A stretch of DNA of 64,000 nt, taken from an uncultured delta proteobacterium (GTDB lineage: Bacteria; Desulfobacterota; BSN033; UBA1163). The stretch's first letter is position 1, and the number at the start of each line of letters is the position of its first letter. The stretch lies in assembly GCA_963695895.1 (NCBI GenBank), contig CAVOIK010000011.1, positions 34,561 through 98,560 of the forward strand, read 5' to 3'. Below are positions 39,403 to 63,875 of this stretch, in pieces. Position numbers and translations under genes: made by a program. Below the pieces are notes generated by a model, which was given only the letters and a program-made list of their open reading frames with translations, made no database searches and was not told the DNA's origin.

Positions 39403-39406
39403 CCCA

Positions 39407-46776: not shown

Positions 46777-46839
46777 GCTAAAGAAAATACTACAACGTAT
46801 ATTTATCCAACCCTATTGCGGCGGTCGCGGTCTATTTGT

Positions 46840-48244: not shown

Positions 48245-49508
48245 TTAAGAAATGGCCACTTTTTTGGAACACACTTCGAGAAATTTCGCAGGAGCTCCCA
48301 TGCCGGCCATCCTCTTTAAGAATTTGACCGGATCCAGACACTCCGCAGCGATCACGCCTCTTGCAGCATTGCCCTCCACACACATCTTTGCTCCCAACGA
48401 CGGCCGGCAGGGAAACATAGATGTTTGAGGCACCGAATTTTCTATACATCTCCAGTTTTTCCTCTACCGTTTCAAAAAGGCTGAGAGGCAGAACGAGTTT
48501 GTATTCGATATCCTCTGCTCCCTTGCCTCCTTTCACCTCTATGGCAATACGGCCAATTATTTTCGGAGGAAGCTTAGCGGTGTTTTCGTCTTCGCTCAGA
48601 AAACTATCCACCGGAGGACGGACGATCTTCATCAATACGTCAATGGGCGCAACCTGCACACCCTTGACATCCACAGGGACAGAACTCGCGAATCCCGTCT
48701 TGATCAACGTGCCTGCTCTCGTATCGACGGTGTACTTGAAATCGCAGTACCGGATACCTTTGCCGATAAAATGTGGCAGGGTAATCGGTTCCTGGTGCTG
48801 ATGATATACAAGGGGAATCATTCCCACCGGCTCCGGAAAGTAATATTCTTCATAGCCGCTGAAGATGGGATACTTCTTGTACTGCCCACCCTCAAATATC
48901 GTAGGTTCCACCGCATAGCCCCAGAGTGCCCTGAAAGGAGACCATGTCGGTTCCCATGCGCTGACCACCTCAGTCGATGGGACCAGGTTCTTGCGACCCA
49001 ATCGAATGCGGATCTCATCAACACGGTCCAATTTGTCACAAACATATTTCGCCAGGATATTAACGATTCCCGGGGAAGCACCGGAACCCACCAAGGCAGT
49101 CAATCCGGCCCCTTTGAACTCACGATCAAGTCCCAGAGGTTTTTTCTCGATGATCTGGCCCAAAATGTTATCTCTCGCGCGTATGTCCATCAGACTGGGC
49201 TCGCCAAAGGAGGTGTCCACATAGTGAGCACCCACTTTCAGAGCCGTCTTCATGATATTGACGTCGAATGCGGTCAACGTCAGATTGATAATAACATCTA
49301 CGCCTTTGGCAGCTTTTTCAATATCCGCCATATCGCCGGCATCTACCTTGACGGCGGTGATTTTGTCACTGTGCAGCTTTTCTTTGACTTTATTTGCTAA
49401 GCCTAAGTCGATATCACTCAAAATAATTTTGGAAACCGCCTTGTCTCTGCTTAGAATCGAGGCACAAGGGCCGCCCTGTGCTCCAGCTCCAACGATCAAC
49501 ACTTTCAT
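48245..49508 (-). CDS. Saccharopine dehydrogenase-like NAD(P)-binding protein, indel near 48393
   Basis: MKVLIVGAGAQGGPCA Rossmann motif. The C-terminus continues in the frame of ORF 48245..48433. Confidence 0.7.
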
Positions 49509-49603
49509 TGTAGTTTCCTCCTTTAATCTATTTCTTAAATGTAATCGATTTGTCCCTTTTATCCATTCTATTTTTCAACATCGATGAGATCGAGCGAAAG
49601 TTC

Positions 49604-49712
49604 ACCTATTCGACCGTGCGAAGCCCCACCTTTCAAGGTGGGGGAGGGGAGCACGGCTCAGGGTAAACCTCGAGGAAGCCCCGGCCTTTAGGCCGGGGAG
49701 TCGAGAGGTTCA
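49604..49712. repeat. Twin GC-hairpin repeat related to family A
   Basis: It contains gaagccccacctttcaaggtggggg and gaagccccggcctttaggccgggg, flanked by gttcac...ggttcac. Confidence 0.6.
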
Positions 49713-49787
49713 CTCATGCTTTTACAACGTTGCTCGTCAGCCTTGGTATCAATGATTGTCTCGTTCAAGGACTGATCCCTGAGCCTC

Positions 49788-50693
49788 CTATCGAATAAGT
49801 TTCCCCGCAATTCTCACGGGAACGATCATCAAGAAGAAAGGTAATATGTAGACTGCAGCGAGTGTGGGAGCGAGAGGCCCGAAGAACTGTGATGAAAAGA
49901 CGATAATCAAGATATTGTTCATGCACGCGAACGAAACAGCCCCGGCCAAGCGGTCCTCTTTCCTTTTGCTCAAGGTCACGACGAATCCAATGACGTGCAG
50001 GATGGCAGATAGAACGAAAGCAACGACGATAGCTCCTATAATCGCCGCAGGTCTTTCCGTGAAATAGGAGGAGTATTTCGGAAAAACCCCCAGGTTGACG
50101 CAGGCGAAGATGACCAGTGAGACCGGGAATTGTATGGTCTCCAGTCTTCTTAGAAAGGAAGGGACCCATTGACGAAGCAAGGTGGCGAAGAACGCAGGCA
50201 CAAAGATCACCATGATGAGGACTCTCACCATCGACAAGAACGAAATCTCGATGGTCGTGCCGAGGAGGAGTTTGACAAGGGCAGGGAGTGATAAAGGAGC
50301 CAAGAGAGAGCTGATGACAACCATCATCAAGGCCAACAGTGTAGAGGCATTCAGAAGGCCTGAGATAAAGGGGGCGAGCACGCCAGTCGAAATTCCGGAC
50401 ATGAGAAGTATGGGAAGGGCGTATTCGGGCAAAAGGGCCTGGGCAATGAAAAAGAGAACGACTGGGACGATCAGTAGTTTACACATACACAAGATCAAAA
50501 GCGTGGAAGCCGTCTCGCCTGCATGGTGGATCACCTCAGAAAACTCGATCTTTAGGAAATTGAAAAAGAGCAGAATCATGAGCATGTAGAAAGGATAAGG
50601 AGAAAAGATTTTGCCCACGGCTGGGAATCCAATACCGGCTCCCATCGAGGCGAAGATGACCAGCAGGAGCATGAGGTCATTTTTTCTGAACAC
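49788..50693 (-). CDS. Bile acid:sodium symporter (BASS) family transporter
   Basis: 301 aa with about 9-10 transmembrane segments and a general BASS-like pattern. Confidence 0.6.
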   Translation of the reverse strand: MFRKNDLMLLLVIFASMGAGIGFPAVGKIFSPYPFYMLMILLFFNFLKIEFSEVIHHAGETASTLLILCMCKLLIVPVVLFFIAQALLPEYALPILLMSGISTGVLAPFISGLLNASTLLALMMVVISSLLAPLSLPALVKLLLGTTIEISFLSMVRVLIMVIFVPAFFATLLRQWVPSFLRRLETIQFPVSLVIFACVNLGVFPKYSSYFTERPAAIIGAIVVAFVLSAILHVIGFVVTLSKRKEDRLAGAVSFACMNNILIIVFSSQFFGPLAPTLAAVYILPFFLMIVPVRIAGKLIR

Positions 50694-50867
50694 GATGAAT
50701 TCACCTCGGAAAGATGTCGAAACAAGGGATAGAATAGTTCATTACTTTTGAATCCTTCGCTTCAGTCTGGTTCCATAGTTCTGGTCACGAACAACGGACC
50801 CGCTCCTGCTTATGAACTTAAGGACAATAAAAGCTTTAGCAAAACTCATATTCCGAGTGTTTCTCCT

Positions 50868-51257
50868 TCACGGGCACAGAATGCTGTGAAGAGGCTCCGG
50901 AACCGTTTTTTGAAAGATGCCTAACCAGTTTGGGTTATCGTAATAGTCATCACGGGTCTTGATACGATCGGCTTCCTCATATTCAACGACATCCAAAACC
51001 CGATAATTTTTTTCCTTGCAATCGATTTCTATTAAACTGGTTTCGCGCTTGGTTGCGTTGTTAATCCACACCCTGAAAAAGTCCTTCGATGGGGAGGTAA
51101 CACTTTCCTTGTCGTAGTAGAAGATCCCTGTACTCGCCTCGGCAAATTCTCTCCAATCTGCGCCCCATGCTTTCGCACAACAGACTGTAAGTCCGATAAC
51201 TATAAAGACCATTCCCAGCTTAGATAATGAAAGTCTCATTTGATTTAACCTCCTCAT
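50868..51257 (-). CDS. Secreted hypothetical protein (surface-adhesin-E-like pattern)
   Basis: It has a signal peptide. The WREFAE...IFYYDKESV...FRVWIN pattern resembles the adhesin-E/DUF family. Confidence 0.4.
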   Translation of the reverse strand: MRRLNQMRLSLSKLGMVFIVIGLTVCCAKAWGADWREFAEASTGIFYYDKESVTSPSKDFFRVWINNATKRETSLIEIDCKEKNYRVLDVVEYEEADRIKTRDDYYDNPNWLGIFQKTVPEPLHSILCP

Positions 51258-51288
51258 TTAGTTCTGTCTTGACCGGGACAGCTTGGAT

Positions 51289-51633
51289 CTAACGGATCTT
51301 TAGGCTTGGAGAACCATGGTCCTGGCATCCCAAGAAATTTAGCAGAGCGGTAATATAGTTTCCCCAAGTCGGGACCAACTTCTCGATCTCATTTGGCAAA
51401 AGGGCAATTTGTCCTTTCTGGATTTTTTCATGCACCTTTTGTAATCTTTGGAAGCTCAACGGCCATGATATTTTTCCTGTCTGCACACAAATCAGATATA
51501 TGGTTTTTGTTTTGCCATCGTAATCCAAAATCCTTAGCTTTCGGGTGCCATCTGCCGTCCAGAACTCGACTTGCTCTTCTTTCATTTTCACCAATTGTTC
51601 CCAGCTGAATAAACAAGACACAGACATTTCCAT
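51289..51633 (-). CDS. Hypothetical protein
   Basis: An open frame of 114 aa with no family I recognise. Confidence 0.35.
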   Translation of the reverse strand: MEMSVSCLFSWEQLVKMKEEQVEFWTADGTRKLRILDYDGKTKTIYLICVQTGKISWPLSFQRLQKVHEKIQKGQIALLPNEIEKLVPTWGNYITALLNFLGCQDHGSPSLKIR

Positions 51634-51862: not shown

Positions 51863-52140
51863 GTGAGGAAATTGAGAAAGCTGCCAAAATTCAAGAACGA
51901 GAAGGAAGAATTTAAGTTCTGGTCAACCCATGACTCCACAGGATATGTGGATTATTCGAAGGCCAAAAGGGTGGTGTTAGCGAACCTGAAGCCTTCGACC
52001 AGGGCGATCTCCATCAGGCTACCGGAGTCCCTTATCACGCATAAAAAGTGTTGGCCAATAAGCGAGATATTCCCTATCAGTCTCTGTTGAAAATGTATTT
52101 GATAGAGAAGGTAGAAGAAGAGTTCCGCGAGGCGAGATAA
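51863..52140 (+). CDS. brnA: BrnA-like antitoxin (CopG/RHH C-terminus), indel in an A5 run near 52037
   Basis: KFKNEKEEFKFWSTHDSTGYVDYSKAKRVVLANLKPSTRAISIRLPESL, then in the other frame KVLANKRDIPYQSLLKMYLIEKVEEE. Confidence 0.65.
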
Positions 52141-52150
52141 ATTAGCAAGT

Positions 52151-52240
52151 CAAAGGCCTATCTTCCCCATTATTCATATTATTGGATTGCCAGGATCTGG
52201 AAAGACTACTTTGGCTGGGCAACTGTCTCTTTGCGGTTTG
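52151..52240 (+). pseudogene. P-loop NTPase gene fragment truncated by the junction repeats
   Basis: It encodes PIIHIIGLPGSGKTTLAGQLS (Walker A) and then runs straight into heptamer repeats. No ATG start is present. Confidence 0.5.
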
Positions 52241-52463
52241 TTAATTCTCGTGCGTTTTTTGGGCTTTGCCCTATGCTCTGCGCGCCATGCTCTATGCCTG
52301 CCTGCCGGTAGGCAGGCGCTCTGCGACTTTCAGTTTTTGGGGTTTACTCTATGCCCTATGCGCCATGCTCCGTGCTCTATGCGGTTTATTGGTTGACCCC
52401 CCTTGCGACTTACGACTCGCGCCTTGCGGTTTTTATACCCTTGCGCCTGACGCCTTACGGAAT

Positions 52464-52510
52464 TTGACGGGCGGTTCATATTGATGTATTATTTACAACA
52501 TATGATGTAA
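52464..52510 (+). promoter_or_regulatory. Promoter plus near-palindromic operator upstream of the wHTH-nucleotidyltransferase gene
   Basis: TTGACG, 17 nt, then TATTAT (52487-52492). Immediately after comes ttacaacatatgatgtaa, palindromic at 16 of 18 positions, at 52493-52510. Confidence 0.5.
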
Positions 52511-52536
52511 AATACACAACAAATAGGTCCCCGCAC

Positions 52537-53100
52537 ATGTCCATGATCCTAAATACAAGATTGAGAAGAAAGTTGCTAACCTATTCCTTCACACACCCTG
52601 ATGAAGACTACTATGTGAGGGAGCTTTCCAGTCTTATCGATGAGGACGCGGGCAATCTTTCAAGAGAATTGCGCAAGTTAGAAGAAGAGGGGCTCTTCGC
52701 CTCCTTTATAAGAGGGCGGGCGAAGTTCTATTCCCTTAATAAACAGTATCCGCTGTTTAAAGAGATCAAGAAGATCGTGTTTAAAACAGAAGGGGTGGAA
52801 GGCAGCCTGAAGGAGGTTATGGCTAAATATAGAGGAATTTCTTTTGCAGTCATCTATGGTTCATACGCTAAAAACAAGGAGACCAAGACTTCCGACATTG
52901 ATGTCCTCGCAGTCGGCGAGTTCCCAGTGAATGCGTTTACCCGGGATATCCGAAACCTGGAATCGAAATTAAGCAGAGAAATAAATTTTACCTCTTACAC
53001 TCGTGAGGAGTTTGAAAAAGAAAGAATGAAGGAGGGAGGATTCCTCAACCAGGTCCTTAAAGAGAAAGTCCACGTACTGAAGGGGAAATTGGGTGTTTGA
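52537..53100 (+). CDS. Winged-HTH fused to a minimal nucleotidyltransferase (MNT-type antitoxin-like)
   Basis: An ArsR-like N-terminus (YVRELSSLIDEDAGNLSRELRKLEEEGL) is followed by the NTase motif IYGSYAKNKETKTSDIDVLAV. Confidence 0.75.
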   Translation: MSMILNTRLRRKLLTYSFTHPDEDYYVRELSSLIDEDAGNLSRELRKLEEEGLFASFIRGRAKFYSLNKQYPLFKEIKKIVFKTEGVEGSLKEVMAKYRGISFAVIYGSYAKNKETKTSDIDVLAVGEFPVNAFTRDIRNLESKLSREINFTSYTREEFEKERMKEGGFLNQVLKEKVHVLKGKLGV

Positions 53101-53569
53101 GAAGCTGACAAAGAGATTTGAAAGAGAAGGAAAAATCAAAAAACAAAAGGCAGGGCTGGTGCAGGTGGAGGCTTTGCTGAAAGAAGCCGTCCTGGATCTT
53201 GAAGAAGCTAAACGAATTTCATCTGTCGCCGAAAGGGCAACCTATCTGCTGGCATACAACGGGATGCTCAAGGCAGGAAGGGCCCTCCTTCTTCTAAAGG
53301 GGTATGTTCCGGATGACGGGGCGCAACACAAAACCGTAGTGGAGATGACTGCTGCGATATTGGGAGCGAAATACAGGAGCCTAACCGAGCAATTTGAGAC
53401 GATGCGCAGGAAGCGAAATGATTTGACTTATGAAGCCGGGACGCTTCTCTCAAAATCCGAGGCCCAGAGGGCTTTCTTGGATTCAATTGAGTTGGTCAAA
53501 AGGATACTGACTGAGGTTAAGGCCCAGAATCCGCAGCTGGACTTGAAACTCGATTTGAAGGAAAGGTAG
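53093..53569 (+). CDS. HEPN domain protein (partner of the nucleotidyltransferase)
   Basis: 158 aa and helical, with a RRKRNDLTY region. It overlaps the upstream gene by 8 nt. Confidence 0.7.
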   Translation: MFEKLTKRFEREGKIKKQKAGLVQVEALLKEAVLDLEEAKRISSVAERATYLLAYNGMLKAGRALLLLKGYVPDDGAQHKTVVEMTAAILGAKYRSLTEQFETMRRKRNDLTYEAGTLLSKSEAQRAFLDSIELVKRILTEVKAQNPQLDLKLDLKER

Positions 53570-53946
53570 AACGCCTCGTCGACGGTTACCGATTGTGGGA
53601 TTTACTCTATGCCCTGTGCGCCATGCGCCATGCGCTTCGTAAGGGAGGGGAGTGACAGGGTTTTTGAAGGAGTCAAACATGAGAAGAATGACATAAGAAG
53701 ATTTGACCCCGGCTGTATACACTTGAGGTTCCATTTTGGCACCTCAAGCTGGATTCCTGAGCACATTGAAATTTCGGTTTGCATGACAGAGATTTCATGG
53801 TGCGTGACTTTTGTGATGAAGAGAATAACTGATTTCGATGACTATGGACCCCTTACTCCTTGCGCCTAACGCCTAACAGATGTGAGGGTGACCCAACGAA
53901 AGCAATAATGTCATGAACGTACCCAAGACCTTCGGAGGATGCGATT

Positions 53947-55230
53947 ATGGAGCAAGGAACAATTACCTGCCCGAAGTGTGGGCATCAGTTTGAAATCTCG
54001 GACGCCCTGACTAGACAGATCCGGGAACACCTCAAGAGCGAACTGCAGCAAGAGATAATCGGCCGAGAGAAGGACCTGAAAAAGAAACTCGATGCTTTCA
54101 AGGCCGAGAAGGAAGCCCTCAACAAAGATAGGGAGGCAATGGAGGAGGAGGTCGAGAGAAAGTTGAAGCAAAAGCTGGAGGAGGCGGAGGCCAAGGTTGC
54201 GAAAAAGGTGGAAGGCAAGTTCGCCGACCAGCTGAAGGAGCTTCAGGAGGCGCTCAATGAGCGCGAGATTTCGATAAAGACCTTCCGCGAAAATGAATTA
54301 GAGCTTCGCAAGAAGCAACGGGAATTAGAGAAGGCGAAGGAAGATGCCGAACTGGAGATCGTCCGAAAACTTGACGAGGAACGCGCAAAAATCCGTCTTG
54401 ATGCAGAGAATAAAGTTTTCGAGCAACACCGGCTGAAAGACTTGGAGAAAGAAAAGGTCATCAGCGACCTGAAGTCGGCGCTGGATGATATGAGGCGTAA
54501 GGCTGAACAGGGCTCCATGGAAACACAAGGAGAGGTGCTGGAGCAGGATTTCGAGGCACAGTTAAAACGATTCTTCCCACACGATGAAATTCAGCCGGTG
54601 CCCAAGGGGATTCGCGGAGCTGATCTGATCCAGGGCGTCCGGACTCCTTTTGGCGCGAAATGTGGGGTCATGCTCTGGGAAACCAAGAACACCAAGGCCT
54701 GGAGTACCGGGTGGATCCCCAAGTTAAAGGACGATATGATCGCGACGAGGGCATCAATTGCGATCATGGTCTCGGTGGCATTACCCGACGAAGTGAGTCG
54801 CTTCGGGATGGTTGACGGGGTGTGGGTCTCCGACCCATTGTCGGCCATACCTTTGGCTGCTGCCCTGCGACAGCAGTTGATCGCCCTCGATTGCGAACGC
54901 CAGGCTTCAGTCGGCAAGAATGAAAAAATGGAGCTACTATACCAGTACCTCTCCGGCACGGATTTCAAACAGAAGATAGAGGGTATCGTTGAGGCCTTCA
55001 CAGCCATGCAGGACCAGGTCAACAGAGAGCGCCGTGCGATGGAAAAGCAATGGAAAGAAAGGGAAAAACAAATCGAGCGAGTCGTTAAGAACACGGTCGG
55101 TCTCTATGGCGATATGCAGGGCATCATCGGCGGACAAATTCCACACATTCCAATGCTGGAACTGGATGGCCACGCGGTCAGAGCATTGCCTGCAGGCTCA
55201 GAGGCTGAATCTGCTGAGGAGGAGGTTTAA
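53947..55230 (+). CDS. DUF2130 protein (N-terminal zinc ribbon, long coiled coil, C-terminal nuclease-like domain)
   Basis: ITCPKCGHQF zinc ribbon, about 170 aa of E/K-rich coiled coil, then GEVLEQDFE...GADLIQ...MLWETKNTK. Confidence 0.75.
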   Translation: MEQGTITCPKCGHQFEISDALTRQIREHLKSELQQEIIGREKDLKKKLDAFKAEKEALNKDREAMEEEVERKLKQKLEEAEAKVAKKVEGKFADQLKELQEALNEREISIKTFRENELELRKKQRELEKAKEDAELEIVRKLDEERAKIRLDAENKVFEQHRLKDLEKEKVISDLKSALDDMRRKAEQGSMETQGEVLEQDFEAQLKRFFPHDEIQPVPKGIRGADLIQGVRTPFGAKCGVMLWETKNTKAWSTGWIPKLKDDMIATRASIAIMVSVALPDEVSRFGMVDGVWVSDPLSAIPLAAALRQQLIALDCERQASVGKNEKMELLYQYLSGTDFKQKIEGIVEAFTAMQDQVNRERRAMEKQWKEREKQIERVVKNTVGLYGDMQGIIGGQIPHIPMLELDGHAVRALPAGSEAESAEEEV

Positions 55231-55358
55231 CCTTGCTCCTTGCGCCTCACTCCTTACGAAGGGATAGGTGACCCGACGAAAGTAATAATGTCATGAACGT
55301 ACCAAAGACTACTTTCCCTTGGCATCCCTAGAGTGCAGGGTTTATGAAGAAATAAGCC

Positions 55359-55419
55359 TTGACAAAAGGATACACCCTATATAAGGTGTAAAGCATAAAT
55401 ACACCCTATTTTAGGTGTA
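55359..55419 (+). promoter_or_regulatory. Promoter with two copies of the TACACC-N8-GGTGTA palindrome upstream of satD
   Basis: TTGACA at 55359. The palindromes are tacaccctatataaggtgta (55371-55390) and tacaccctattttaggtgta (55400-55419). Confidence 0.55.
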
Positions 55420-55440
55420 ACTAATGGAGGCAGGAATACG

Positions 55441-56149
55441 ATGGGAAAAATCGTGGCAGCTGTGACATGCGACATCGTGAGATCGCAGAGATATTCAACG
55501 GAACTGAGGAAGAGAATTGACACCCTCCTGAAGAAAGAATTCGCCAAAGTGTACAAAGCCTACCCAAACGCTATTCACACGCCTACCTCTTTTAATATTA
55601 CTGTAGGTGACGAATTCCAGTTCGTCTTGTCGAAAGTTGAGAAGGCCTATGAGTTAACGATTTTCTACCGTGCGCTGGTTGCCCTCGCCGATATTACTCC
55701 GATGATCAGCTTCCGTTCGTCGATTGGGATCGGTGAGATCGCTGTCGAAAACAAGAAGGATTCCTATTCCCAGGATGGTAAGGCATTCCATCGTTCTAGA
55801 GAGGGCATCAATTTCTTCCGGAATCAGAAATATCAGAGGGAGGAGACGTACCAAAATCGTAACCGGAGACAGGGCCCTCGACGAGACCTTGGATCTCATT
55901 CTCATGTACCAGGATCTCCTGGAAGAAAAGTGGACTCGTGCGCAATGGGAGGCCATTCGCTGGCGACTGATGTTACCGACCTATGAGGAGATCGCCCGCA
56001 AGTTAGGGGTTGCTTATCAAAACGTCCAGAAACGACTGAAGGCAGCCAACTGGGATGAGTTTAGCAAGGGGATTGAATTTATTGAGAAGGTTTTGACGTC
56101 ACACCTTCAAAAGGGTGTAAGCGGCAATCTCACCCCTAAAAGGGTGTAA
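55441..56149 (+). CDS. SatD-family protein with a C-terminal HTH, indel near 55840
   Basis: AAVTCDIVRSQRY...ITVGDEFQF...SIGIGEI. In the second frame: WTRAQWEAIRWRLMLPTYEEIARKLGVAYQNVQKRL. Confidence 0.65.
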
Positions 56150-56163
56150 GGGGGATTGAGACA

Positions 56164-56886
56164 ATGATCTTTTGGAAAATTCTCCTTGCCCATGCGCTAA
56201 CCGATTTTGTCTTCCAGCCTGACTCTTTGGCCGAAAACAAAGGCAAAATAACGGTACTTTTAGTTCACACGCTTATCTTTTTTCTCCTTTCTGTTGTCAT
56301 CCTTTTGCCGAACCTTTCTTATCAGACGGTAACCGCTCTTGTATGCCTTGCACTCTTTCATGGGTTCATTGACTATCTTAAAAATCTGATCCAAAAAGGC
56401 ACTGCAAGAAGTCATTGGCTCTATTTTCTCGGGGATCAGGCACTTCATGTGTTGGGAATTGGAGTCGTCGTATTCTTTCTGGATAGGGAACGCTTTCATG
56501 CATGGATCAATCTCTTGTCGACTTATTGGTCAAAACCTTCTCTATTTCTATTTGTCTCCCTCTTTGTCGTGATTGTATTTGGAGGGGGTTTTTTTACCGG
56601 GGTCCTCTGTAGAGGGTTCCTGGGACGATTGAACTCGGAGAAGAGACCAGGGATTGAAAGGGCAGGGAGGTATATTGGAATCCTGGAAAGAAGTCTGGTT
56701 CTGACAGCTGTGCTCTTTGGCAAGATGGAATTTATCGGATATATCTTTGCGGCCAAATCGATTGCTCGTTATCCGGAGATGAAAGAAGGGACTCATTTCG
56801 CAGAATATTATTTGATCGGAACCTTAACCAGCATCTCCATCGCTTTTTTCGGAGGTCTACTCTTGAAGTATCTATTAGGATGGTAA
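56164..56886 (+). CDS. DUF3307 membrane protein (usual partner of SatD)
   Basis: LLAHALTDFVFQPD N-terminus with multiple transmembrane segments. Confidence 0.7.
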   Translation: MIFWKILLAHALTDFVFQPDSLAENKGKITVLLVHTLIFFLLSVVILLPNLSYQTVTALVCLALFHGFIDYLKNLIQKGTARSHWLYFLGDQALHVLGIGVVVFFLDRERFHAWINLLSTYWSKPSLFLFVSLFVVIVFGGGFFTGVLCRGFLGRLNSEKRPGIERAGRYIGILERSLVLTAVLFGKMEFIGYIFAAKSIARYPEMKEGTHFAEYYLIGTLTSISIAFFGGLLLKYLLGW

Positions 56887-57173
56887 TGGGCTTTTTGTTT
56901 TGGCGCCTGACGACTTACGTTTTACTCCTTGCGCCTCGCGCCTTGCGATTTCAACTTTTGGGGTTCACTCTATGTCCTATGCCTGCCCGCCGTAGGCGGG
57001 CGCTACCTGCCTGCTTGCAGGTCCGAAGCAGAGGAAACTGCGTAGGAGGATGCGCTGTGCGATTTCAGTTTTTGGGGTTCACTCTATGCCCTATGCGCTA
57101 TGCTCTTTGCGTCTTTTGCTTGTGCCCCTTGCGACTTACGACTCGCGCCTAACGGTACTTGTTGGAGGTGGCC

Positions 57174-57353
57174 ATGCCAGCAATTGCATCTCTTGAAGAC
57201 CTAAAAGCTGCGCAGAAAGATCTCTTGGAAGCGAAGGATCTGGATGAGTTGAAAGGTGCGTTCAAAAAATGCCGTCGAATCGGCTGGAAAAATGTGTGTA
57301 AGTTGTGGCTGGAAGAGCGTACACCAGAGCAATTGAAGGGTGAAAGCGGATAA
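57174..57353 (+). CDS. 59-aa repeated ORF, copy 1 (family unknown)
   Basis: MPAIASLEDLKAAQKDLLEAKDLDELKGAFKKCRRIGWKNVCKLWLEERTPEQLKGESG, with a ggaggtg RBS 4 nt upstream. Confidence 0.6.
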   Translation: MPAIASLEDLKAAQKDLLEAKDLDELKGAFKKCRRIGWKNVCKLWLEERTPEQLKGESG

Positions 57354-57508
57354 TTATTTATTGCTTTGCGGGGTAGGGTATGTGTGTTTTTTGGTTTCAA
57401 CTCCTTACTCCTTACACCTCACTCCTTACGTCTTTTGAAGGGGAGGGCGAGTAAATAGTGTAGGCCTGACACCCTAGTCACTATTCAACTAAACAGGAGG
57501 TAAGAAAT

Positions 57509-57853
57509 ATGAAGAGAGAGATTAAGGTCGAAAAACTTGATACAACTAAGGAGAAGGTTCTTTATGATAATTGTGTGATTAGCAAGAGAATTATTACTAA
57601 AGCAAGAAGTGGTTCAGAAAAGATGTCGTTTCATCATACCTTTATCAAGAAGGGTTGGGAACACCCGGTTTCATATCCTGAGATGGACGAAATTATCTAT
57701 TTCTTAGATGGCAGAGCAAAGATCTCATATGATGGGAAAGAAGTTGAAGTATCATCAGGGTTCTGCGTGTATATTCCTGCAGGTTGTGAATACAACTACC
57801 GGGCTCTTGACGATGCAACGATGGTTTGCGTTTTTTCACCGCCGGCAGAGTAA
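57509..57853 (+). CDS. Cupin domain protein
   Basis: 114 aa. The HHTF...EIIYFLDGRAKISYDGKEVEVSSGFCVYIPAGCEYNY pattern is cupin-like, and an aggagg RBS is present. Confidence 0.7.
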   Translation: MKREIKVEKLDTTKEKVLYDNCVISKRIITKARSGSEKMSFHHTFIKKGWEHPVSYPEMDEIIYFLDGRAKISYDGKEVEVSSGFCVYIPAGCEYNYRALDDATMVCVFSPPAE

Positions 57854-57980
57854 AGAAAAGAAGCAATGGGGGTCGGCTCTTGGGAAGGGACACATGGGGT
57901 AGGAGGATGCTCTTTGCGTTTTTTGCTTGCGCCCCTTGCGACTTACGACTCGCGCCTAACGGTACTTGTTGGAGGTGGCC

Positions 57981-58160
57981 ATGCCAGCAATTGCATCTCT
58001 TGAAGACCTAAAGACAGCACAGAAAGATCTCTTGGAAGCGAAGGATCTGGATGAGTTGAAGGGTGCGTTCAAGAAATGGCGTCGAATCGGCTGGAAAAAT
58101 GTGTGTAAATTGTGGCTCCAAGAGCGTACCCCAGAACAATTGAAGGGGGAAGGAGGGTAA
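57981..58160 (+). CDS. 59-aa repeated ORF, copy 2
   Basis: It differs from copy 1 at 4 of 59 residues and has an identical RBS and leader. Confidence 0.6.
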   Translation: MPAIASLEDLKTAQKDLLEAKDLDELKGAFKKWRRIGWKNVCKLWLQERTPEQLKGEGG

Positions 58161-58260
58161 AGTGGGCACGTTGGTCGCAATGATCCTAATTCACGGTTCA
58201 GGCCCCGACCCCCTTGCGTCCTTCAAGTTATAATTTCATGAACGTCCCAGAGGCCTACTA

Positions 58261-58296
58261 TTGACAAAGGAAACAATTTAGTTATAAATTGTTTCC
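58261..58296 (+). promoter_or_regulatory. Promoter overlapped by a perfect 11-bp inverted repeat, upstream of the ATPase gene
   Basis: TTGACA, 16 nt, then TATAAA. The inverted repeat is ggaaacaattt (58269-58279) and aaattgtttcc (58286-58296). Confidence 0.55.
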
Positions 58297-58309
58297 TGAG
58301 GTAAACACC

Positions 58310-59614
58310 ATGCCCGTCGATCCGTTGCTTCAGATCGTTGCAGAGTGGATCGAAGAAGTAACGCTTCCAAAACTGATCCCACGAAGCATCGCTCCCATCA
58401 ACCTTGAGCGACTCCGGGACATCCTTGCCATCGTGGGACCACGACGAGCGGGTAAGACGTTTCTCATGTATCAACTCATGGGGTCGCTGCTCCAAACGCA
58501 TCGGTGGACGAAACAGGATATCCTCTTTGTTGACTTCGAAGATTACCGATTGAAGGGGTTCCGGACGGAGGACGTGGAACCGCTCTTTGTCGCTTTTAAT
58601 CAGCTCGCAGGACGATATCCGACCTTTCTCTTCTTTGATGAAGTCCAGTATCTCCCAGATTGGAACCGGGTGCTCCGCACGCTCCACAATCGAGGGAGAT
58701 TTCATATTGTCATCTCCGGCAGCAACTCCAAACTTCTTAAGGGCGAAGTGGCAACGGAACTCCGGGGGCGTTATACGGATGTCCTCCTCCTGCCGTTCTC
58801 TTTTCGAGAATTTCTCGCTTTCCGGCGGGTCACCTACACCCCGGCCCTTCTTCACACAGCGGCCCGAGGTCGCATCCTGCGAGCGTTTGACGACTACTTG
58901 AAAGAAGGAGGGTTTCCGGAGGTGTTGATCCGTGAAGCAACGACGGAAAAAAGGAAGCTTCTCCAGACGTACTATAACACGATCTTCTACCGCGATATTC
59001 TGGAACGGTTTAACATCAAGGCAAAAACCATCCTCGACGGGATGATGACCTACGTCGTGAATACACCCTCAGAACTGTTTTCCATTTCTGCCTTCGAAAA
59101 ACAGCTCCGGTCGAAACAGATCCCCGGAAGCAAGCGAACCATTGCCAATTATCTTCGCTACCTGCAGGAGGCTTTCTTCGTGATCGCGAACGAGAAGTTC
59201 TCCTATTCCCCGCGGCATCGCCTGATGAATCCCAAAAAAGTCTATCTGACGGACACGGGATTTCTGATGTTAGCCACCCCATTCTCGGAAAACCGGGGCA
59301 AAGTGCTGGAAAATCTCGTCGCCATTGAGTTTTTCAGGCGAGAGCAGGAGATGTTTTACTTCAAGGGTAGACACGAATGTGATTTCATCGTCAAAGAGGG
59401 GACTCAACCTCGGGAAGCAATCCAGGTCTGCTGGGAGCTTCAGCCGCAGAACGAGAAGCGGGAGCTCCAGGGATTGTTGGAGGCCATGATCACCCTGAAA
59501 CTACGAAAGGGCAGGGTTTTGACCTACGCCCAGGAAGAGACGAGAAAGATCGAAGGCCGAACGGTCTCCGTCTCCCCAGTATGGAAATGGTTGTTAAACA
59601 GTGAGGTCCAGTGA
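58310..59614 (+). CDS. AAA-type ATPase with a DUF4143 C-terminal domain
   Basis: Walker A GPRRAGKT and Walker B FLFFDEVQ. The C-terminal DUF4143-like region is typical of this family. Confidence 0.75.
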   Translation: MPVDPLLQIVAEWIEEVTLPKLIPRSIAPINLERLRDILAIVGPRRAGKTFLMYQLMGSLLQTHRWTKQDILFVDFEDYRLKGFRTEDVEPLFVAFNQLAGRYPTFLFFDEVQYLPDWNRVLRTLHNRGRFHIVISGSNSKLLKGEVATELRGRYTDVLLLPFSFREFLAFRRVTYTPALLHTAARGRILRAFDDYLKEGGFPEVLIREATTEKRKLLQTYYNTIFYRDILERFNIKAKTILDGMMTYVVNTPSELFSISAFEKQLRSKQIPGSKRTIANYLRYLQEAFFVIANEKFSYSPRHRLMNPKKVYLTDTGFLMLATPFSENRGKVLENLVAIEFFRREQEMFYFKGRHECDFIVKEGTQPREAIQVCWELQPQNEKRELQGLLEAMITLKLRKGRVLTYAQEETRKIEGRTVSVSPVWKWLLNSEVQ

Positions 59615-59827
59615 CAAGGCCAAGTAGGCATTGTGCCTGCCTGCCGGTAGGCAGGCGCTATGCCTGCTTGCAGGTCCGAAGCAGAGCAGGCTGCGTAGGA
59701 GGATGCGCTGTGCGACTTTCAATTTTTGGGGTTCACTCTATGCCCTATGCGCTATGCTCTTTGCGTTTTTTGCTTGCACCCCTTACTCCTTGCGCCTCGC
59801 GCCTAACGGTATCTCTTGGAGGTGCTT

Positions 59828-60007
59828 ATGCCAGCAATTGCATCTCTTGAAGACCTAAAATCTGCGCAGAAAGATCTTCTGGAAGCGAAGGATCTGGATG
59901 AGTTGAAGGGAGTGTTCAAGAAGTGGCGAAGAATTGGATGGAAAAATGTGTGCAAGCTGTGGCTGGAAGAGAGAACCCCGGAACAATTGAAAGGTGAAGG
60001 CGAATAA
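59828..60007 (+). CDS. 59-aa repeated ORF, copy 3
   Basis: MPAIASLEDLKSAQKDLLEAKDLDELKGVFKKWRRIGWKNVCKLWLEERTPEQLKGEGE. Confidence 0.6.
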   Translation: MPAIASLEDLKSAQKDLLEAKDLDELKGVFKKWRRIGWKNVCKLWLEERTPEQLKGEGE

Positions 60008-60227
60008 ACCTCATTTTGGTGAGTTAGAGATGCCGTGTACGTTCTTAGTTTTGTCCCCTTGCGACTTACGACTCGCGACTTGCAGCTTTTTTATACCCCT
60101 TACTCCTTTCGCCTTGCACCTTACGGTATTTTATGGTCACCAGAGCAGTTGAAGGGGGAGGGCGAGTGAATAGTGTAGACCTGACACACCAAAACGACAA
60201 AACATATACAATCTCTTACATGGAGCC

Positions 60228-60794
60228 ATGAGAATGGGCAAAGACGTGGAATTGGTTTCTCCAGAGCACATCGAACAATCGATCCTGTTGATTCGTCACC
60301 AAAAAGTGATGCTTGACTCTAACTTGGCGGAACTTTACGGAGTGAGCACGAAAAGGTTAAATGAGCAGGTTAAACGAAATCGTGCACGTTTTCCGGGGGA
60401 TTTTATGTTTCAATTGACAGTATCAGAGACCGACATTTTGAGGTCGCAATTTGCGACCTCAAAAAAGGGAGGCGGGGGGCGTCGGTACCTTCCATATGCT
60501 TTCACAGAGCAAGGGGTAGCCATGCTATCCAGCGTGCTCAACAGTGAAAGAGCAATTCAGGTTAACATCGAGATCATGCGTGCTTTTGTCCGATTGCGGC
60601 GAATTCTCGCCTCTCATGCTGCTTTGGCTCGAAAGCTTGACGCTCTCGAAAAGAAATATGATGCCCAGTTCAAGGTTGTCTTTGATGCCATACGTGAATT
60701 GATGAAACCCCCTGAATCCAAAAAGCGCCCAATCGGGTTTCTTGTTGAGGAGCCTAAGGTTCCTTATCTCACAAGAAGGAAAAGGAAAAGTTAG
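60228..60794 (+). CDS. ORF6N domain DNA-binding protein
   Basis: [43 protein letters not shown]...[19 protein letters not shown] is typical of ORF6N. Confidence 0.75.
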
Positions 60795-60986
60795 GTGTTG
60801 GGGAAGAGGTTCAGATGTGGCAATTCATGATATGTGTTTTGCGTCGCCCTTGCGACTTACGACTCGCAACTTGCGACTTTCAGTTTTTTGGGGGGTTACC
60901 CTATGCTCTATGCGCCATGCGCTATGCTTTTCTTGTGCCCCTAACTCCTTGCACCTCACGCCTAACGGTATCTTTTGGAGGTGCTT

Positions 60987-61160
60987 ATGCCAGCAATTGC
61001 ATCTCTTGAAGACTTAAAAGCTGCCCAAAAGCCTTTACGCGTGATGCTCTCTGCGCTATGCTCTATGCTTTAGGAAAATGGCGGCGTATGGCTGGGAAAA
61101 TGTGTGTAAGTTATGGCTGGAAGAGAGAACCCCGGAACAATTGAAAGGTGAAGGCGAATA
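60987..61160 (+). pseudogene. 59-aa repeated ORF, copy 4, with its central part replaced by heptamer repeats
   Basis: The 5' 45 nt and 3' ~85 nt match copies 1-3. Positions 61032-61074 read cctttacgcgtgatgctctctgcgctatgctctatgctttagg instead of the coding sequence. Confidence 0.75.
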
Positions 61161-61447
61161 AACGTGATTTTGGTGAGTTAGAGGTGCTGTGTGCGGTCTT
61201 ACTTTCGATCCCTCGCTCCTTGCGCCTCACTCCTTACTGAGTTGAGAGGAGTGGGTGTCTGGATCGAAAAACTGAAAGAAATGAGCAACGTCCCAACCCA
61301 ACGCACTGCAAACCCAGCGCAAAATTGGCTATTCTGATTATCCCGGACAGTGATTCCGATTTGATGCCGGACGCCTGTTCCGAAGGATGGCGGACACCCT
61401 GGTCGGAGCGAAGCGACGCTGGGGTTTTAGGATATCTTACCGATGAA

Positions 61448-62188
61448 TCATGGGACGTCAAGTTTTTGTTTCTTTCTCATGGATCCTCCTTTCAATTGAA
61501 TGCGGTGAGCATTGTGAATCAGTCGATCCAGGATGGCATCGGCGATCGTTGGATCCCCGATATGGTCGTGCCAGTTTTCCACAGGGAGCTGGCTCGTGAT
61601 AAGGGTAGAGGTATTGCCGTGGCGGTCTTCGATGACTTCCAGAAGATCTCTTCGCTCGGTGTCGGTCAGAGGGGCTAAGCCCAAATCGTCAAGGACGAGG
61701 AGATGGGTTTTGGAGAACTTTTTGATGAGACTTCCATAACTGCCATCGGCCCGGGCGAGAGCGATCTGATAGAAGAACTGAGGGCAACGGAGGTAAAGGG
61801 TTCGGAATCCTTCGCGGCAGGCTTTCTGAGCCAGGGCACAGGCGAGGAAGGTTTTTCCGACACCCGTGGGACCGGAGATCAGAAGATTCTGATGGTTTCG
61901 GATCCAGTTACAGGAGGCAAGATTCAGGAGGACCGATTTTTCGATGCCCCGGGATGTTTTGAAGTCGATATCTTCGACGCAGGCCTGGAGTTTAAGTTTG
62001 GCCTCTTTGAGAAGTCGTTTGAGGCGAGTGTTTTCCTTCCAGGTCCATTGACGATCGACGAGGATACCAAAGCGGTCATCGAAAGAGAGATCCTGGAAGG
62101 AAGGCTGCTGGGACTGTTCTTTAAAGGCCTCAGCCATGCCGAGAAGTTTCATGCCATAGAGTTTGTCAAAGGTCTGTTCGTTGAGCAT
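61448..62188 (-). CDS. istB: IS21 helper ATPase IstB
   Basis: Walker A GPTGVGKTF, Walker B LLVLDDLG, 246 aa. Confidence 0.9.
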   Translation of the reverse strand: MLNEQTFDKLYGMKLLGMAEAFKEQSQQPSFQDLSFDDRFGILVDRQWTWKENTRLKRLLKEAKLKLQACVEDIDFKTSRGIEKSVLLNLASCNWIRNHQNLLISGPTGVGKTFLACALAQKACREGFRTLYLRCPQFFYQIALARADGSYGSLIKKFSKTHLLVLDDLGLAPLTDTERRDLLEVIEDRHGNTSTLITSQLPVENWHDHIGDPTIADAILDRLIHNAHRIQLKGGSMRKKQKLDVP

Positions 62189-62205
62189 GGGGTTTCATCA
62201 TCCTT

Positions 62206-63754
62206 TCACTGATAGTATTGTCTTCCTCTGAGGTTTGAATGTTCAAGCAGAGGCGGAGGGGTTTGAGAAGAAGCGACGGTAAGGGGCTGCCGATCCAATC
62301 CATTTTTGAGGATGGACTCCACGTTCTTATAGGAATAGGCTTTCATTCTGAGCGCTCTGGCGCAGGCAGATTCGAGACGCTCGGGAGTGTAACGTTTTCC
62401 TAACCGAAGCAGGCCCAGACACGAGCGGTACCCCTGCTCCGGGTGAGGACGGTTCTCCAGGATGCAGGCGACCAGTTTCTGAGTGGAAGGGCCGATCTTC
62501 GCTGCCCATCCGATGAGCCGAGAAGGAGTCCATTCGAGATATTTCTGATGGGACTTGGGCATGTGCTCGGAGACGGTGGTGGGTTTCCCGGGGCGATAGC
62601 TCCGGAGATGGGAGGCGACTCTTCGGCCCTTGAAGAAGATCTCGACGGTGGTCTCGGTGAATCGCACCTCCACCTTCTGGTGAATCAGCTGATAGGGAAC
62701 GCTGTAGTAATGGCGATCCACCTCGATATGGTAATCGATATTGACCTTGGCGCTTTTCCATTCGGCAAAGACGAACCGTTGAGAGGGGAGAGGCTTCAAG
62801 GCGGGTTTTTCCAGAGTCTCGAAGAGGATCTTGCGAGAGGTAGGGAGTTTCTCAAAGGGGCGATGGTTTAAGATCTCCAGTTGGACCCGGAGGGCTTGAT
62901 TGAGTTCCGTGAGACTGAAGAAGGTTCGGTGTCTTAGGGGAGCCAGACCCCAGCGTTCAATCTGCAGGACCGCGGACTCTCCCTTGGCCTTATCCCGGGG
63001 CTTACCGACACGAGCAGGAATGATGACGGTGCCGTAGTGCTCAGCCATTTCCCGGTAGGTGGCATTGAGGTCGGGTTCATAGCGGCAGGAGCGGGTGACA
63101 GCCGAGCGGAGGTTATCGGGGACCAGGATCTCGGCAACACCACCAAAGAATTCAAAGGCATGGATATGGGACTCGATCCAGGAAGGAAGCTCTTGGGAGA
63201 GGGAGGCTTCGGCAAAGGTGTAGTTACTGGCCCCTAGGGTGGCCACAAAGATCTGGGCTTCGGTGATGAGTCCCGTTACGGGATCAACGATCGGCATGGT
63301 CTGGCCGGCATAGTCGACGAAGAGCTTTTCTCCGGCTCGGTACTCTTGGCGAAGACAGGGGTCGAGCTTCTCAGCCCATTGGTGGTAGAGGCGACAGAAC
63401 TGACTATACTGGTACCCGTCGGGAGTTCCCTTGCTTGTACTCATCCCATAGGAGCTGAAGCGTCACCCCCTTCTTCTTGAGTTCCTGGTTCAGGTACTCC
63501 ATGGGAGGCATTTGGCGCTTCTCTGAGGGGATAGGGACCCTGGTAGGAAAGAGACGATGCTCCAGGGAGGCTTCATCCAGATCAGGAGGAAGGGGCCAGC
63601 CAAATCCGGCCTTCTGAGCACGATCCAGATAGTCATGAACCGTGCTTCGACCGATCCCCAGGCTTTGAGCGATTTCTCGGGTGGAGAGATTCTTTTCGTG
63701 GTAGAGACGCAGTACTTCTTTAACCTTACGCATGGATAATCTCCTTGTGGCCAT
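62206..63754 (-). CDS. istA: IS21 transposase IstA, indel near 63425
   Basis: The N-terminal HTH (STREIAQSLGIGRSTVHDYL) lies in ORF 63404..63754. The DDE core (VDYAGQT...) lies in ORF 62206..63444. Confidence 0.88.
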
Positions 63755-63875
63755 CTATGCCTCCTCAGAACGTTTCTCTGAGGACAGTAATGGCTCGATG
63801 GTCGATTATCCAGCGTCACTTCTCCAAAGACTTACAAGGTGTCCGGCATCAATCGGAATGACTGTCCGGGATGGA

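Follow-up and report, generated by a model that had tools for sequence, protein, structure and literature searches.

Between 52.2 and 61.3 kb of a 64,000-nucleotide (nt) stretch of contig CAVOIK010000011.1 (positions 34,561-98,560), from an uncultured, sulfate-reducer-like delta proteobacterium, unrelated gene modules lie on one strand and are separated by spacers assembled from a shared set of repeats, often together with a small gene for a protein of 59 amino acids (aa). Hereafter the whole 64,000-nt stretch is called the window and this region, which makes up 14% of it, the array. Module content beyond the conserved left flank differs between close strains, and on balance we consider the locus to be probably a chromosomal hotspot for defence and toxin-antitoxin (TA) genes of a Thermodesulfobacteriota-like genome, in which portable junction blocks give the homology for module exchange.

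Module content differs between close strains

Three contigs of close relatives (L080, L081 and L082) were compared with the window, taking the BASS transporter gene of the left flank (49788-50693) as an anchor. This flank, consisting of the transporter gene, an adhesin-E-like gene and a 114-aa gene, is 92-98% identical in all three, and the modules beyond it differ. L080 (flank 97.6%) follows the window as far as 52297, a point within the first run of one heptamer family (A, defined below), and rejoins it at 53886, nine bases past a run of the other family (B); between these two points about 1.75 kb with YCII and DinB_2 genes on the opposite strand stands in place of the nucleotidyltransferase (NTase)/HEPN module, and the following DUF2130 module is kept at 99.7% DNA identity. 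In L082 (flank 94-96%) the order is other genes, a B-A-B junction, a gene of no assigned family with a DUF4143 fragment, a B run with an ATAAT…ACGT word, a cupin gene, a hairpin/A/B junction and the leader of SatD. Its cupin is 98.7% identical to that of the window over exactly 57483-57855 (373 bp) in a different neighbourhood, the SatD leader corresponds to window positions 55231-55343, and the block of junction 4 follows the cupin module instead of DUF2130. In L081 (flank 93%), an RHH-PIN pair adjoins the flank. L080 and L082 come from one sample and thus the variants co-exist, giving three arrangements within one species-level clade, two of them in one sample. The words that make up the junctions recur in the contigs of the relatives, so that the check proposed in the first-pass annotation, which had been made from the letters alone, namely whether module content varies while flank and junction words persist, turned out positive for each of the three, with the left flank as the anchor.

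The breakpoints at 52297, 53877/53886 and 55231 lie in heptamer runs or at most 10 nt from them. Truncated genes also adjoin such runs, including a P-loop fragment at 52236, remnants of the 59-aa open reading frame (ORF) at 57440, 60140 and 60987-61162, and cases in the related loci L048 and L050. Homologues of the flank gene at 67-69% identity are found in other, non-syntenic contexts without the array, and the hotspot is therefore young. Exact-sequence look-ups of the window cupin, the ORF6N protein and the flank protein returned no further contigs, and a metagenome scan with the cupin found only five loci. Distant homologues of the cupin sit in a metabolic operon without junction repeats, because of which the array cupin looks, judging by sequence, like a captured ORF; in that native operon, the downstream gene starts like a DUF362 protein. 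Next to the anchor, a 3.2-kb segment (46565-49788) with a DUF362 gene and a saccharopine-dehydrogenase-like gene is absent in both L080 and L082, where 46565 is joined directly to 49788.

Modules, junction blocks and the 59-aa gene

Genes were called from the ORF list and Pfam, and defence assignments were made with PADLOC. All credible genes between 52.2 and 61.3 kb are on the + strand. The modules and flanks are as follows.

49788..51633, - strand: left flank with the BASS transporter (49788-50693), the adhesin-E-like lipoprotein and the 114-aa gene; anchor for comparing relatives
51863..52140, + strand: CopG/BrnA-type antitoxin, split over two frames (Pfam PF12441, E=2.6e-19; second frame read from the sequence)
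52150..52235, + strand: N-terminal fragment of a P-loop NTPase (GLPGSGKTT; …IIGLPGSGKTTLAGQLS), read from the sequence and truncated at 52236 by junction 1
52464..53569, + strand: winged helix-turn-helix (wHTH)-NTase/HEPN module, with wHTH-NTase at 52537-53100 and the overlapping HEPN at 53093-53569 (Pfam)
53947..55230, + strand: DUF2130 protein with zinc ribbon, coiled coil and DUF2130 domain (Pfam E=1.6e-62)
55345..56886, + strand: SatD and DUF3307 module, with SatD in two frames (55441-55986, 55724-56149) and a DUF3307 membrane protein at 56164-56886 (Pfam)
57483..57855, + strand: cupin module, ORF 57509-57853 (Pfam)
58310..59614, + strand: AAA_14/DUF4143 ATPase (Pfam; PADLOC PDC-S01, E=5e-105)
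60228..60794, + strand: ORF6N-domain protein (Pfam E=8.5e-35; PADLOC PDC-S05, E=1e-59)
61448..63754, - strand: IS21-family insertion sequence (IS), with IstB at 61448-62188 and IstA at 62206-63754 in two frames (Pfam IstB_IS21 E=2e-74; rve/Mu-transposase C-terminal domain; HTH)

The picture drawn in the first-pass annotation, with at least six unrelated modules on the + strand, a P-loop gene cut off by the repeats on the left, an IS21 insertion on the right, and several modules with a promoter and operator of their own, is borne out by the ORF list, by the Pfam matches, those to IstB and IstA included, and by reading of the sequence. The frameshifted CopG/BrnA gene, which precedes the P-loop fragment, is the first element beyond the conserved left flank (97.6% identity in L080), and the P-loop fragment is truncated identically in L080; on the other side, the IS21 element is the right boundary of the array within the window. 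A second copy of the first ~19 istA codons (MATRRLSMRKVKEVLRLYH…) lies at 63806-63934, just past the complete IS21, which suggests a nested or tandem IS21 insertion at the window end. Three genes, namely SatD (55441-56149), the CopG/BrnA antitoxin (51863-52140) and IstA (62206-63754), are each broken between two frames, which may reflect either decay to pseudogenes or homopolymer errors in a long-read assembly; the names of the relatives' contigs suggest long-read metagenome assemblies.

Cargo of TA or defence type had also been expected, and three modules indeed match "phage defence candidate" families of PADLOC: the NTase/HEPN pair, which is of the MNT-HEPN TA type (PDC-M05A/B, E=1e-46 and 3e-15), the DUF4143 ATPase (PDC-S01) and the ORF6N protein (PDC-S05). 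Together with the CopG antitoxin, these form a defence/TA cluster of the kind by which defence islands are recognized. Consensus-like promoters with palindromic operators are seen for three modules, namely at 52464-52492 for NTase/HEPN, at 55345-55420 ahead of the SatD/DUF3307 genes (with two TACACCCTAT…AGGTGTA operators), and at 58261-58290 in junction 8 for the DUF4143 ATPase (TTGACA-18-TAAATT), and this makes the three modules autonomous units rather than promoterless cassettes. In scans for promoters and terminators, matches were no more frequent than in shuffled sequence. The borders of the cupin module are tight, running from 26 nt 5′ of the ATG to 2 nt 3′ of the stop codon.

The spacers between these modules contain two heptamer families, A (YRTGCNN) and B (TNRCGNN), for which two or more heptamers are counted as a run. 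On the + strand of the window, 7 of the 8 A runs and 13 of the 18 B runs fall within the array (20 of 26 in total), and our own binomial arithmetic puts this concentration at ~1e-12. With 26 runs on the + strand and only two on the - strand, the earlier description of the junctions as tandem repeats in the same orientation is upheld. The 20-mer TTTTGGGGTTYACTCTATGC matches seven sites with no more than 3 mismatches, every one of them on the + strand and within 52257-60906 (0 in 100 shuffles), and the palindrome GCCTGCCTGCCGGTAGGCAGGC occurs exactly at 52296 and 59635 and never in shuffles, with relatives at 2-3 mismatches outside the array at 27000 and 29279. A repeat finder sorted the junctions, as copies of each other, into 13 families (D1-D13), among which D1 comprises three copies, 84-87% identical, of a 291-nt block composed of an A run, a linker, a B run, a Shine-Dalgarno sequence and the 59-aa ORF; identical tracts of several tens of bases lie inside the junction blocks. 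The notion that every junction is built from the same parts thus holds at the level of these families, but junctions 53600-53640 and 58200-58255 contain only fragments. Likewise, heptamer runs are concentrated in the array, but the hairpin word and short tandem repeats also occur elsewhere in the window, so that only part of the repeat vocabulary is particular to the junctions. The individual junctions and copies of the 59-aa ORF are as follows.

52236..52470, + strand: junction 1, heptamer-A run, hairpin 52296-52317, TTTTGGGGTTTACTCTATGC then A run 52335-52384, B runs 52403-52461
53593..53640, + strand: junction 2, TTGTGGGATTTACTCTATGC, then heptamer-A run
53848..53929, + strand: junction 3, B run 53853-53877, then GGTGACCCAACGAAAGCAATAATGTCATGAACGTACC word; family D9
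55231..55309, + strand: junction 4, B run, then second copy of the GGTGACCC…ATAATGTCATGAACGTACC word; D9
56887..57173, + strand: junction 5, terminator-like GGGCTTTTTGTTTT, B run, A run, two hairpins, GTAGGAGGATGC word, A run, B run, Shine-Dalgarno sequence; D1, D8, D10
57174..57353, + strand: 59-aa ORF copy 1, intact
57354..57508, + strand: junction 6, B run 57399-57432, 59-aa ORF 3′ remnant, then AATAGTGTAGGCCTGACAC; D12, D4
57854..57980, + strand: junction 7, GTAGGAGGATGC word, A remnant, linker, B run, Shine-Dalgarno sequence; D1, D3
57981..58160, + strand: 59-aa ORF copy 2, intact
58161..58309, + strand: junction 8, B remnant, ATAATTTCATGAACGTCCC word, promoter, palindromic operator
59615..59827, + strand: junction 9, strong hairpins right after the stop codon, GTAGGAGGATGC word, TTTTTGGGGTTCACTCTATGC with A run, B run, Shine-Dalgarno sequence
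59828..60007, + strand: 59-aa ORF copy 3, intact
60008..60227, + strand: junction 10, two B runs, 59-aa ORF 3′ remnant 60140-60169, then ATAGTGTAGACCTGACAC; D4, D12
60795..60986, + strand: junction 11, B run, TTTGGGGGGTTACCCTATGC with A run, B run, Shine-Dalgarno sequence
60987..61162, + strand: 59-aa ORF copy 4, codons ~16-31 replaced by a heptamer-A run, frame broken
61163..61240, + strand: junction 12, B run 61208-61240; array cut here by the IS; D2, D4

The GC-rich hairpin folds strongly (z=-3.8 at 59615-59700) and stands directly after stop codons, and its G-U pairs on the + strand correspond to C-A mismatches on the other strand. Hairpins of the form CCTGCC…GGCAGG are found upstream of the 59-aa ORF in L008, L017, L037 and L039, also in L082 and L083, and in many related loci; the element looks like a repetitive extragenic palindromic (REP)-type element or a terminator. 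A further word, (T)GCGTAGGAGGATGC, is observed at 57036-57050, 57896-57908 and 59692-59706 and in L082 and L083 as the 5′ edge of many junction blocks, often continuing into the hairpin as GTAGGAGGGTGCCTGCC…GGCAGG, and in L083 it stands on both sides of the cupin. It has a GTAG head, as the REP elements of enterobacteria do. A word of about 38 nt, GGTGACCCRACGAAAGYAATAATGTCATGAACGTACC (53886-53923 and 55267-55303, in part at 58230-58248), is placed between the B run and the starts of DUF2130 and SatD, with the partial copy ahead of the DUF4143 ATPase; L080 and L082 hold two copies each, and in L082 it precedes the cupin. This word is confined to the window and its closest relatives, and two breakpoints coincide with its 5′ edge. 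The ATAATGTCATGAACGT word was considered as a dif/Xer-type site and rejected, having no dyad symmetry on direct reading and being present in the window and closest relatives only.

For a wider view, 79 loci carrying relatives of the 59-aa ORF were collected, each seen as a piece of ±6-10 kb. In the window and these loci together, a period of 7 is dominant, with 53 runs, while no other period between 4 and 12 exceeds 10, and Tandem Repeats Finder gave 117 period-7 rows; in the 79 loci, A and B runs are on the strand of the 59-aa ORF in a ratio of 45:4. Unit sequences are degenerate and change from genome to genome (CGCTATG, CTTACGC, TCACGAA, AATCCGC, ACGGAC and others), and between orthologous junctions of different metagenome-assembled genomes (MAGs) the 7-nt period and the RCG or TGC core are retained while the other positions change. 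Orthologous spacers can differ widely in the length of their runs, from 2 units to more than 10, and a run is missing altogether from some homologous spacers. L080 and L082 agree with the window in the unit number of orthologous runs, which differ by substitutions; the runs are therefore not slippage-prone contingency repeats, and a contingency locus with phase variation by slippage was rejected on this ground and on the imperfection of the runs. A possible exception is the heptamer-bearing variant of the 59-aa ORF described below, which is in frame in some loci and out of frame in others. The B run ends ~22 nt before each 59-aa ORF start, with the Shine-Dalgarno sequence in between, and this is the run nearest to a start codon in the window. 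No RNA family was found by Rfam in 51.5-61.5 kb at E<=1, and C-rich spacers of the Rho-utilisation type were dismissed as not convincing, the C/G ratio being 1.00 in junctions and 0.78 in coding parts, which is a mild shift. Much of the junction vocabulary is made up of lineage-wide intergenic repeat classes, namely REP-like hairpins, heptamer simple repeats and intrinsic terminators, which are seen beyond the array too and in numerous further MAGs.

The 59-aa ORF, which had been noticed as a conserved reading frame in four places, is intact in three of them, but the fourth copy (60987-61162) is disrupted; two short 3′ remnants exist in addition (~57440-57455 and 60140-60169). Its close relatives form more than 1299 clusters at 90% identity in public metagenomes, and more than 2200 by profile search, all of 59-66 aa and none with a Pfam domain. 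DNA similarity among them begins at the ribosome-binding site and stops at the stop codon, and the ratio of nonsynonymous to synonymous substitution (dN/dS) is ~0.06 over 528 pairs, indicating purifying selection: the ORF is a genuine protein gene under strong selection and not just repeat DNA. Between the three intact window copies dS is 0.36-0.94 and dN 0.02-0.03. A recent tandem duplication is rejected by these dS values, and the copies have therefore arrived or persisted as separate genes. The family resides mainly in MAGs of Thermodesulfobacteriota/"Deltaproteobacteria", often with 3-6 copies per MAG (one genome per species), and at 83-95% identity also in MAGs labelled Aminicenantes, NC10, Omnitrophota and Fischerbacteria; Spirochaetota and Planctomycetota have a branch of 61-66 aa at 42-50% identity, in which the start MPAIASLE and the end TPExLKG are invariant. 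Members are found on megabase-scale contigs, and most metagenomic contigs with the ORF are short. The protein has no match in Pfam, NCBIfam or PADLOC and no relative in IMG/VR that would point to phage origin; against sequences in the PDB the best hit (E=0.007, a designed TIM barrel) is spurious. An AlphaFold model predicts four short helices in a small helical bundle (pLDDT 81), for which Foldseek found no match in the PDB better than E=3.7.

A variant of the 59-aa ORF whose middle is replaced by CTATGCN-type heptamers recurs in several unrelated MAGs (window 60987-61162, L042:6001-6177, L055:6001-6183, L059:3196-3377, L056:2547-2666, L048:2727-2852, L050:5990-6099 and L071:6001-6201, the units in L071 being ATTCCGC). 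It keeps the N-terminal MPAIASLEDLKAAQK and the C-terminal WRRIGWKNVCKLW…TPEQLKGE; the heptamer run preserves the reading frame in L042 and L071 but breaks it in the window, L055 and L059, and in L048 and L050 only the join from heptamers to C-terminus is left. As far as the sequences tell, the variant could be a product of decay or a frame-switching isoform. In 38 copies of the ORF, codons 4-9 (ATT GCA TCT CTT GAA GAT; window 57183-57200) show a synonymous entropy of 0.4-0.8, compared to 1.2-2.5 in later four- and six-fold codons, which could be an ordinary constraint on the start region or a signal at the nucleic-acid level.

Every recurrent neighbour family in the 79 loci is co-oriented with the 59-aa ORF. 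These neighbours are of defence/TA type: ORF6N, wHTH-NTase/HEPN, DUF4143 ATPases, DUF1016/YhcG nuclease, DUF433 with DUF5615/PIN, Fic, XRE regulators, RadC, type I restriction-modification, BrnT/BrnA, AbiEii, GIY-YIG and Gp49-like toxins. No integrase, transposase or other recombinase recurs near the ORF in these loci, and a fixed partner gene was rejected because the immediate neighbours are diverse. The order of cargo, junction and 59-aa ORF is kept in other MAGs for ORF6N (L001, L004, L044 and L074), DUF4143 (L048) and DUF3307 (L050), and therefore the junction block seems to travel at the 3′ side of modules. L001, a contig of 488 kb from a related organism, has a similar co-oriented array (5590-6310 and 6600-20000) that starts directly behind a tRNA cluster, and no integrase is found within 20 kb; the genes of this array run in the order PIN, DUF1016, ORF6N, 59-aa ORF, wHTH-NTase/HEPN, other genes, DUF4143, PhdYeFM and NTase/HEPN, and its spacer repeats use other units (TCACGAT, ATGACGCA, ACGGAC).

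Several features were observed elsewhere in the window. Intergenic tandem repeats, mostly of 8-base or 6/12-base units (AGGGTTCA, AAGGTTGAGGTT, ACTCAATG…), lie outside the array at 8536-8660, 9955-10040, 25161-25289, 26880-26960 and 29235-29300, and at two convergent gene ends a tandem array faces its reverse complement, giving long hairpins (z=-3.8 and -5.1); it looks as if this organism forms hairpins of tandem units throughout its genome. Five tRNA genes (32513-33124) are followed by ~11 kb of low-GC DNA (0.40-0.45; 33127-45107) with genes for an ABC transporter, a creatininase, an amidohydrolase and a desuccinylase-type protein. This segment is absent in L080, where 33127 is followed by ~0.8 kb of other sequence and then 44262, and the 43-nt copy of a tRNA 3′ end (33085-33127) recurs at 45064-45107, so that 33127-45107 looks like a tRNA-targeted island, for which an integrase was not found. 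A molybdenum/tungsten cofactor riboswitch (Rfam RF01055, 79 bits) is located at 15596-15722 on the - strand, upstream of the gene at 14430-15665.

A possible route of module exchange and its alternatives

In the explanation that we favour, self-contained modules, most of them with their own promoter and operator, lie head to tail, and the spacers between them are mosaic blocks made of the terminator- or REP-like GC hairpin, the two heptamer families and often the 59-aa gene with its strong Shine-Dalgarno sequence. Such blocks would travel with modules as cargo, junction and 59-aa gene, and, since many copies exist within the array as well as in the rest of the genome and in those of relatives, would offer directly oriented homology. 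Modules could then be gained, lost, duplicated or swapped by homologous or homology-facilitated illegitimate recombination, with recombination between direct repeats excising a circle that may re-enter at any other junction in the same orientation; RecA would be the acting recombinase and the repeats its actual substrates. The hairpins would probably also insulate modules transcriptionally and terminate transcription. Exchange between direct repeats would explain the common strand, the truncated genes at heptamer runs and the differences between strains, with no integrase needed.

Several observations weigh against this explanation. Only three relatives were compared, and the comparison is anchored on the left flank, the right side ending in an IS21 or where contigs break off. 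Heptamer runs with a 10-nt margin make up ~45% of the intergenic DNA, and by our own arithmetic three of five breakpoints near runs is not significant; breakpoints must be intergenic for modules to survive, and closeness to runs is therefore not statistically telling. Furthermore, the cupin borders at 57483 and 57855 are not in repeats, the YCII and DinB_2 genes of L080 are inverted, which simple direct-repeat exchange does not predict, and the intact 59-aa copies are 16-20% divergent in DNA, lowering the efficiency of RecA. The frameshifts in SatD, CopG and IstA, if long-read errors, bear on the quality of the assembly.

Orderly arrays of this kind recall integrons, and the first-pass annotation had likened the locus to an integron or to a cluster of attC sites lacking integron-integrases (CALIN), noting that its junctions are not attC sites and that no integrase is visible. 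Both reservations proved right. A scan of 51.8-61.5 kb for attC-type inverted repeats gave only the GC hairpin and palindromes inside genes, with none of attC type at the junctions; a crude R″/R′ box scan of the whole window found no RYYYAAC…GTTRRRY pair (at least 6/7 complementary, 52-157 nt apart) on either strand; and no phage-integrase-family match was found by Pfam among the array genes, the flanks and the genes of 33-49 kb, IS21 being the only transposase. CALINs lack IntI by definition, and a missing integrase alone is not decisive. Small co-oriented modules of unrelated and often TA-type cargo, a repeated element 3′ of each, and content that varies between strains are shared with integrons, but here attC, IntI and attI/Pc were not found, the junctions are direct repeats combined with a gene, one relative (L080) has inverted modules, and three modules carry consensus-like promoters of their own, whereas integron cassettes are mostly promoterless and served by a common promoter. 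That attC sites were overlooked in a CALIN is extremely improbable, and for practical purposes the locus is excluded as an integron. A dedicated cassette system with other sites and an integron-like function, in which cargo and a 3′ block (hairpin, heptamer A, heptamer B and 59-aa gene) would be moved by a recombinase encoded elsewhere, possibly with the 59-aa protein as an accessory or directionality factor, is unlikely as well. No recombinase recurs near the arrays, and the window has none besides IS21; the breakpoints share no fixed core sequence; and the heptamer units differ between junctions and genomes while the 59-aa protein is near-invariant, so that specific reading of the units is unlikely. 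The protein, moreover, is modelled as a small helical bundle without structural match, and the modules bring their own promoters. What such a system would account for is the linkage of cargo to block kept for three unrelated cargos in other genomes, the cupin with its tight borders in two contexts (373 bp at 98.7%) and its distant homologues in an ordinary operon, as if captured, the 59-aa ORF with diverse neighbours, several copies per genome and 83-95% identity across phyla, and the strong orientation bias. We give a similarly small chance to the wider form of this idea, that an unrecognised cassette system exists in anaerobes, chiefly Thermodesulfobacteriota and also Aminicenantes, NC10, Omnitrophota and Spirochaetota, in which defence/TA modules with a 3′ block (REP-like hairpin, heptamer runs and a conserved 59-66-aa gene, MPAIASLE…TPExLKG) would be moved in fixed orientation between junctions, within and between genomes, and the small protein or the heptamer runs might be part of a recombination or repair machinery, for example with runs laid down or used at DNA joints. 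The original suggestion of an undescribed cassette locus thus stands for the exchangeable modules, as seen in L080, L081 and L082, but no dedicated cassette-capturing mechanism has been shown.

The junction repeats may also be purely regulatory, acting as terminators, insulators or periodic sites for a multimeric protein, and the strain differences would then be ordinary island turnover; this is conceivable, and we regard it as somewhat improbable. Precedents are HutP, which binds UAG-N4 repeats, the omega repressor on arrays of heptads, and the TAACTGA repeats that precede start codons, for which a role has been proposed. Regulation would suit the co-orientation of runs with genes, the position of the B run ahead of each 59-aa ORF start and its Shine-Dalgarno sequence, the hairpins placed right after stop codons and stabilised by G-U pairs on the transcribed strand, the retention of period and RCG/TGC core while other positions drift between MAGs, and the unchanged unit number in the window and L080/L082; heptamers are found just upstream of start codons in Beggiatoaceae as well (PMC4679880). 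It fits poorly with run lengths of 2 to more than 10 units between orthologous spacers, some of which lack a run, and with runs that replace coding interior and adjoin truncated genes, which resemble recombination scars; no candidate binding protein was found, and the promoter and terminator scans did no better than on shuffled sequence. That the array is an assembly chimera made by its repeats is very unlikely. Repeats of 100-300 nt can indeed mis-join short-read contigs, most contigs with the 59-aa ORF are short and three genes are frameshifted, but independent assemblies from other samples repeat the adjacencies of 49.8-52.3 kb and 53.9-55.35 kb at 97.6-99.7% identity, the adjacency of cupin and junction is reproduced, and those of cargo and 59-aa ORF recur in unrelated MAGs, including megabase-scale contigs.

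Known systems and significance

For the locus as a probable defence hotspot, close counterparts are known from Pseudomonas aeruginosa (core defence hotspots, PMC10250203) and Alteromonas (additive flexible islands, PMC4898812). With these it shares a fixed site set by conserved genes, defence/TA sets that differ between close strains, as content at this one site does in L080, L081 and L082 with the left flank as anchor, and the lack of a resident integrase. It differs in that modules are separated by shared repeats and a small gene and are nearly all co-oriented; in described hotspots, exchange has been ascribed to conserved flanks or mobile elements and not to internal junction blocks.

The junction blocks themselves have likenesses among intergenic repeats. 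REP elements and bacterial interspersed mosaic elements (BIMEs) of enterobacteria, and the Neisseria intergenic mosaic elements (NIMEs) with dRS3, are motif mosaics with a GC-rich imperfect palindrome, oriented by transcription and located after gene ends; the Neisseria repeats lie by variable or silent cassettes and are thought to favour recombination. In the array too, a few motifs including a GC-rich palindrome are combined variably in intergenic DNA (D1-D13), but heptamer runs and a 59-aa gene are not part of those elements. REPs are dispersed over the genome in many copies and have a cognate RAYT transposase; here no RAYT-type transposase was seen, although no search aimed at one was made. 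TAACTGA heptanucleotide repeats are known from Beggiatoaceae, Cyanobacteria and Bacteroidetes (PMC4679880), and Mrazek et al. (2007), as summarized in PMC4679880, describe long simple repeats with units of 5-11 nt, among which 7-nt units are the commonest in bacteria. The heptamer repeats of Beggiatoaceae and the short tandemly repeated repetitive (STRR) sequences of cyanobacteria are likewise intergenic direct 7-nt runs, oriented by genes and often upstream of them, and their patchy phylogenetic distribution suggests horizontal spread. The units described here are different and degenerate, forming two families with TGC and RCG cores. Within the 64 kb of the window, their runs cluster in a defence island and are not distributed over all classes of genes; they are also tied to a hairpin and a small gene, and present at the ends of truncated genes. 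In the literature we found no description of a block of heptamers, hairpin and small gene accompanying defence modules, nor of the 59-aa family.

How chromosomal defence islands acquire and rearrange their genes when no mobile-element machinery is visible is still to be explained, and this locus is a concrete case for testing, as co-existing strains differ by whole modules and modules come with portable junction blocks. The 59-aa family is very large, strongly conserved and unannotated, and it marks defence/TA neighbourhoods across several anaerobic phyla; its gene is thus a marker for variable defence islands in uncultured Thermodesulfobacteriota, and the heptamer/hairpin blocks account for fragmentation in short-read assemblies. 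If the blocks are indeed recombination substrates or regulatory insulators, this would be a new mechanism for defence-island biology.

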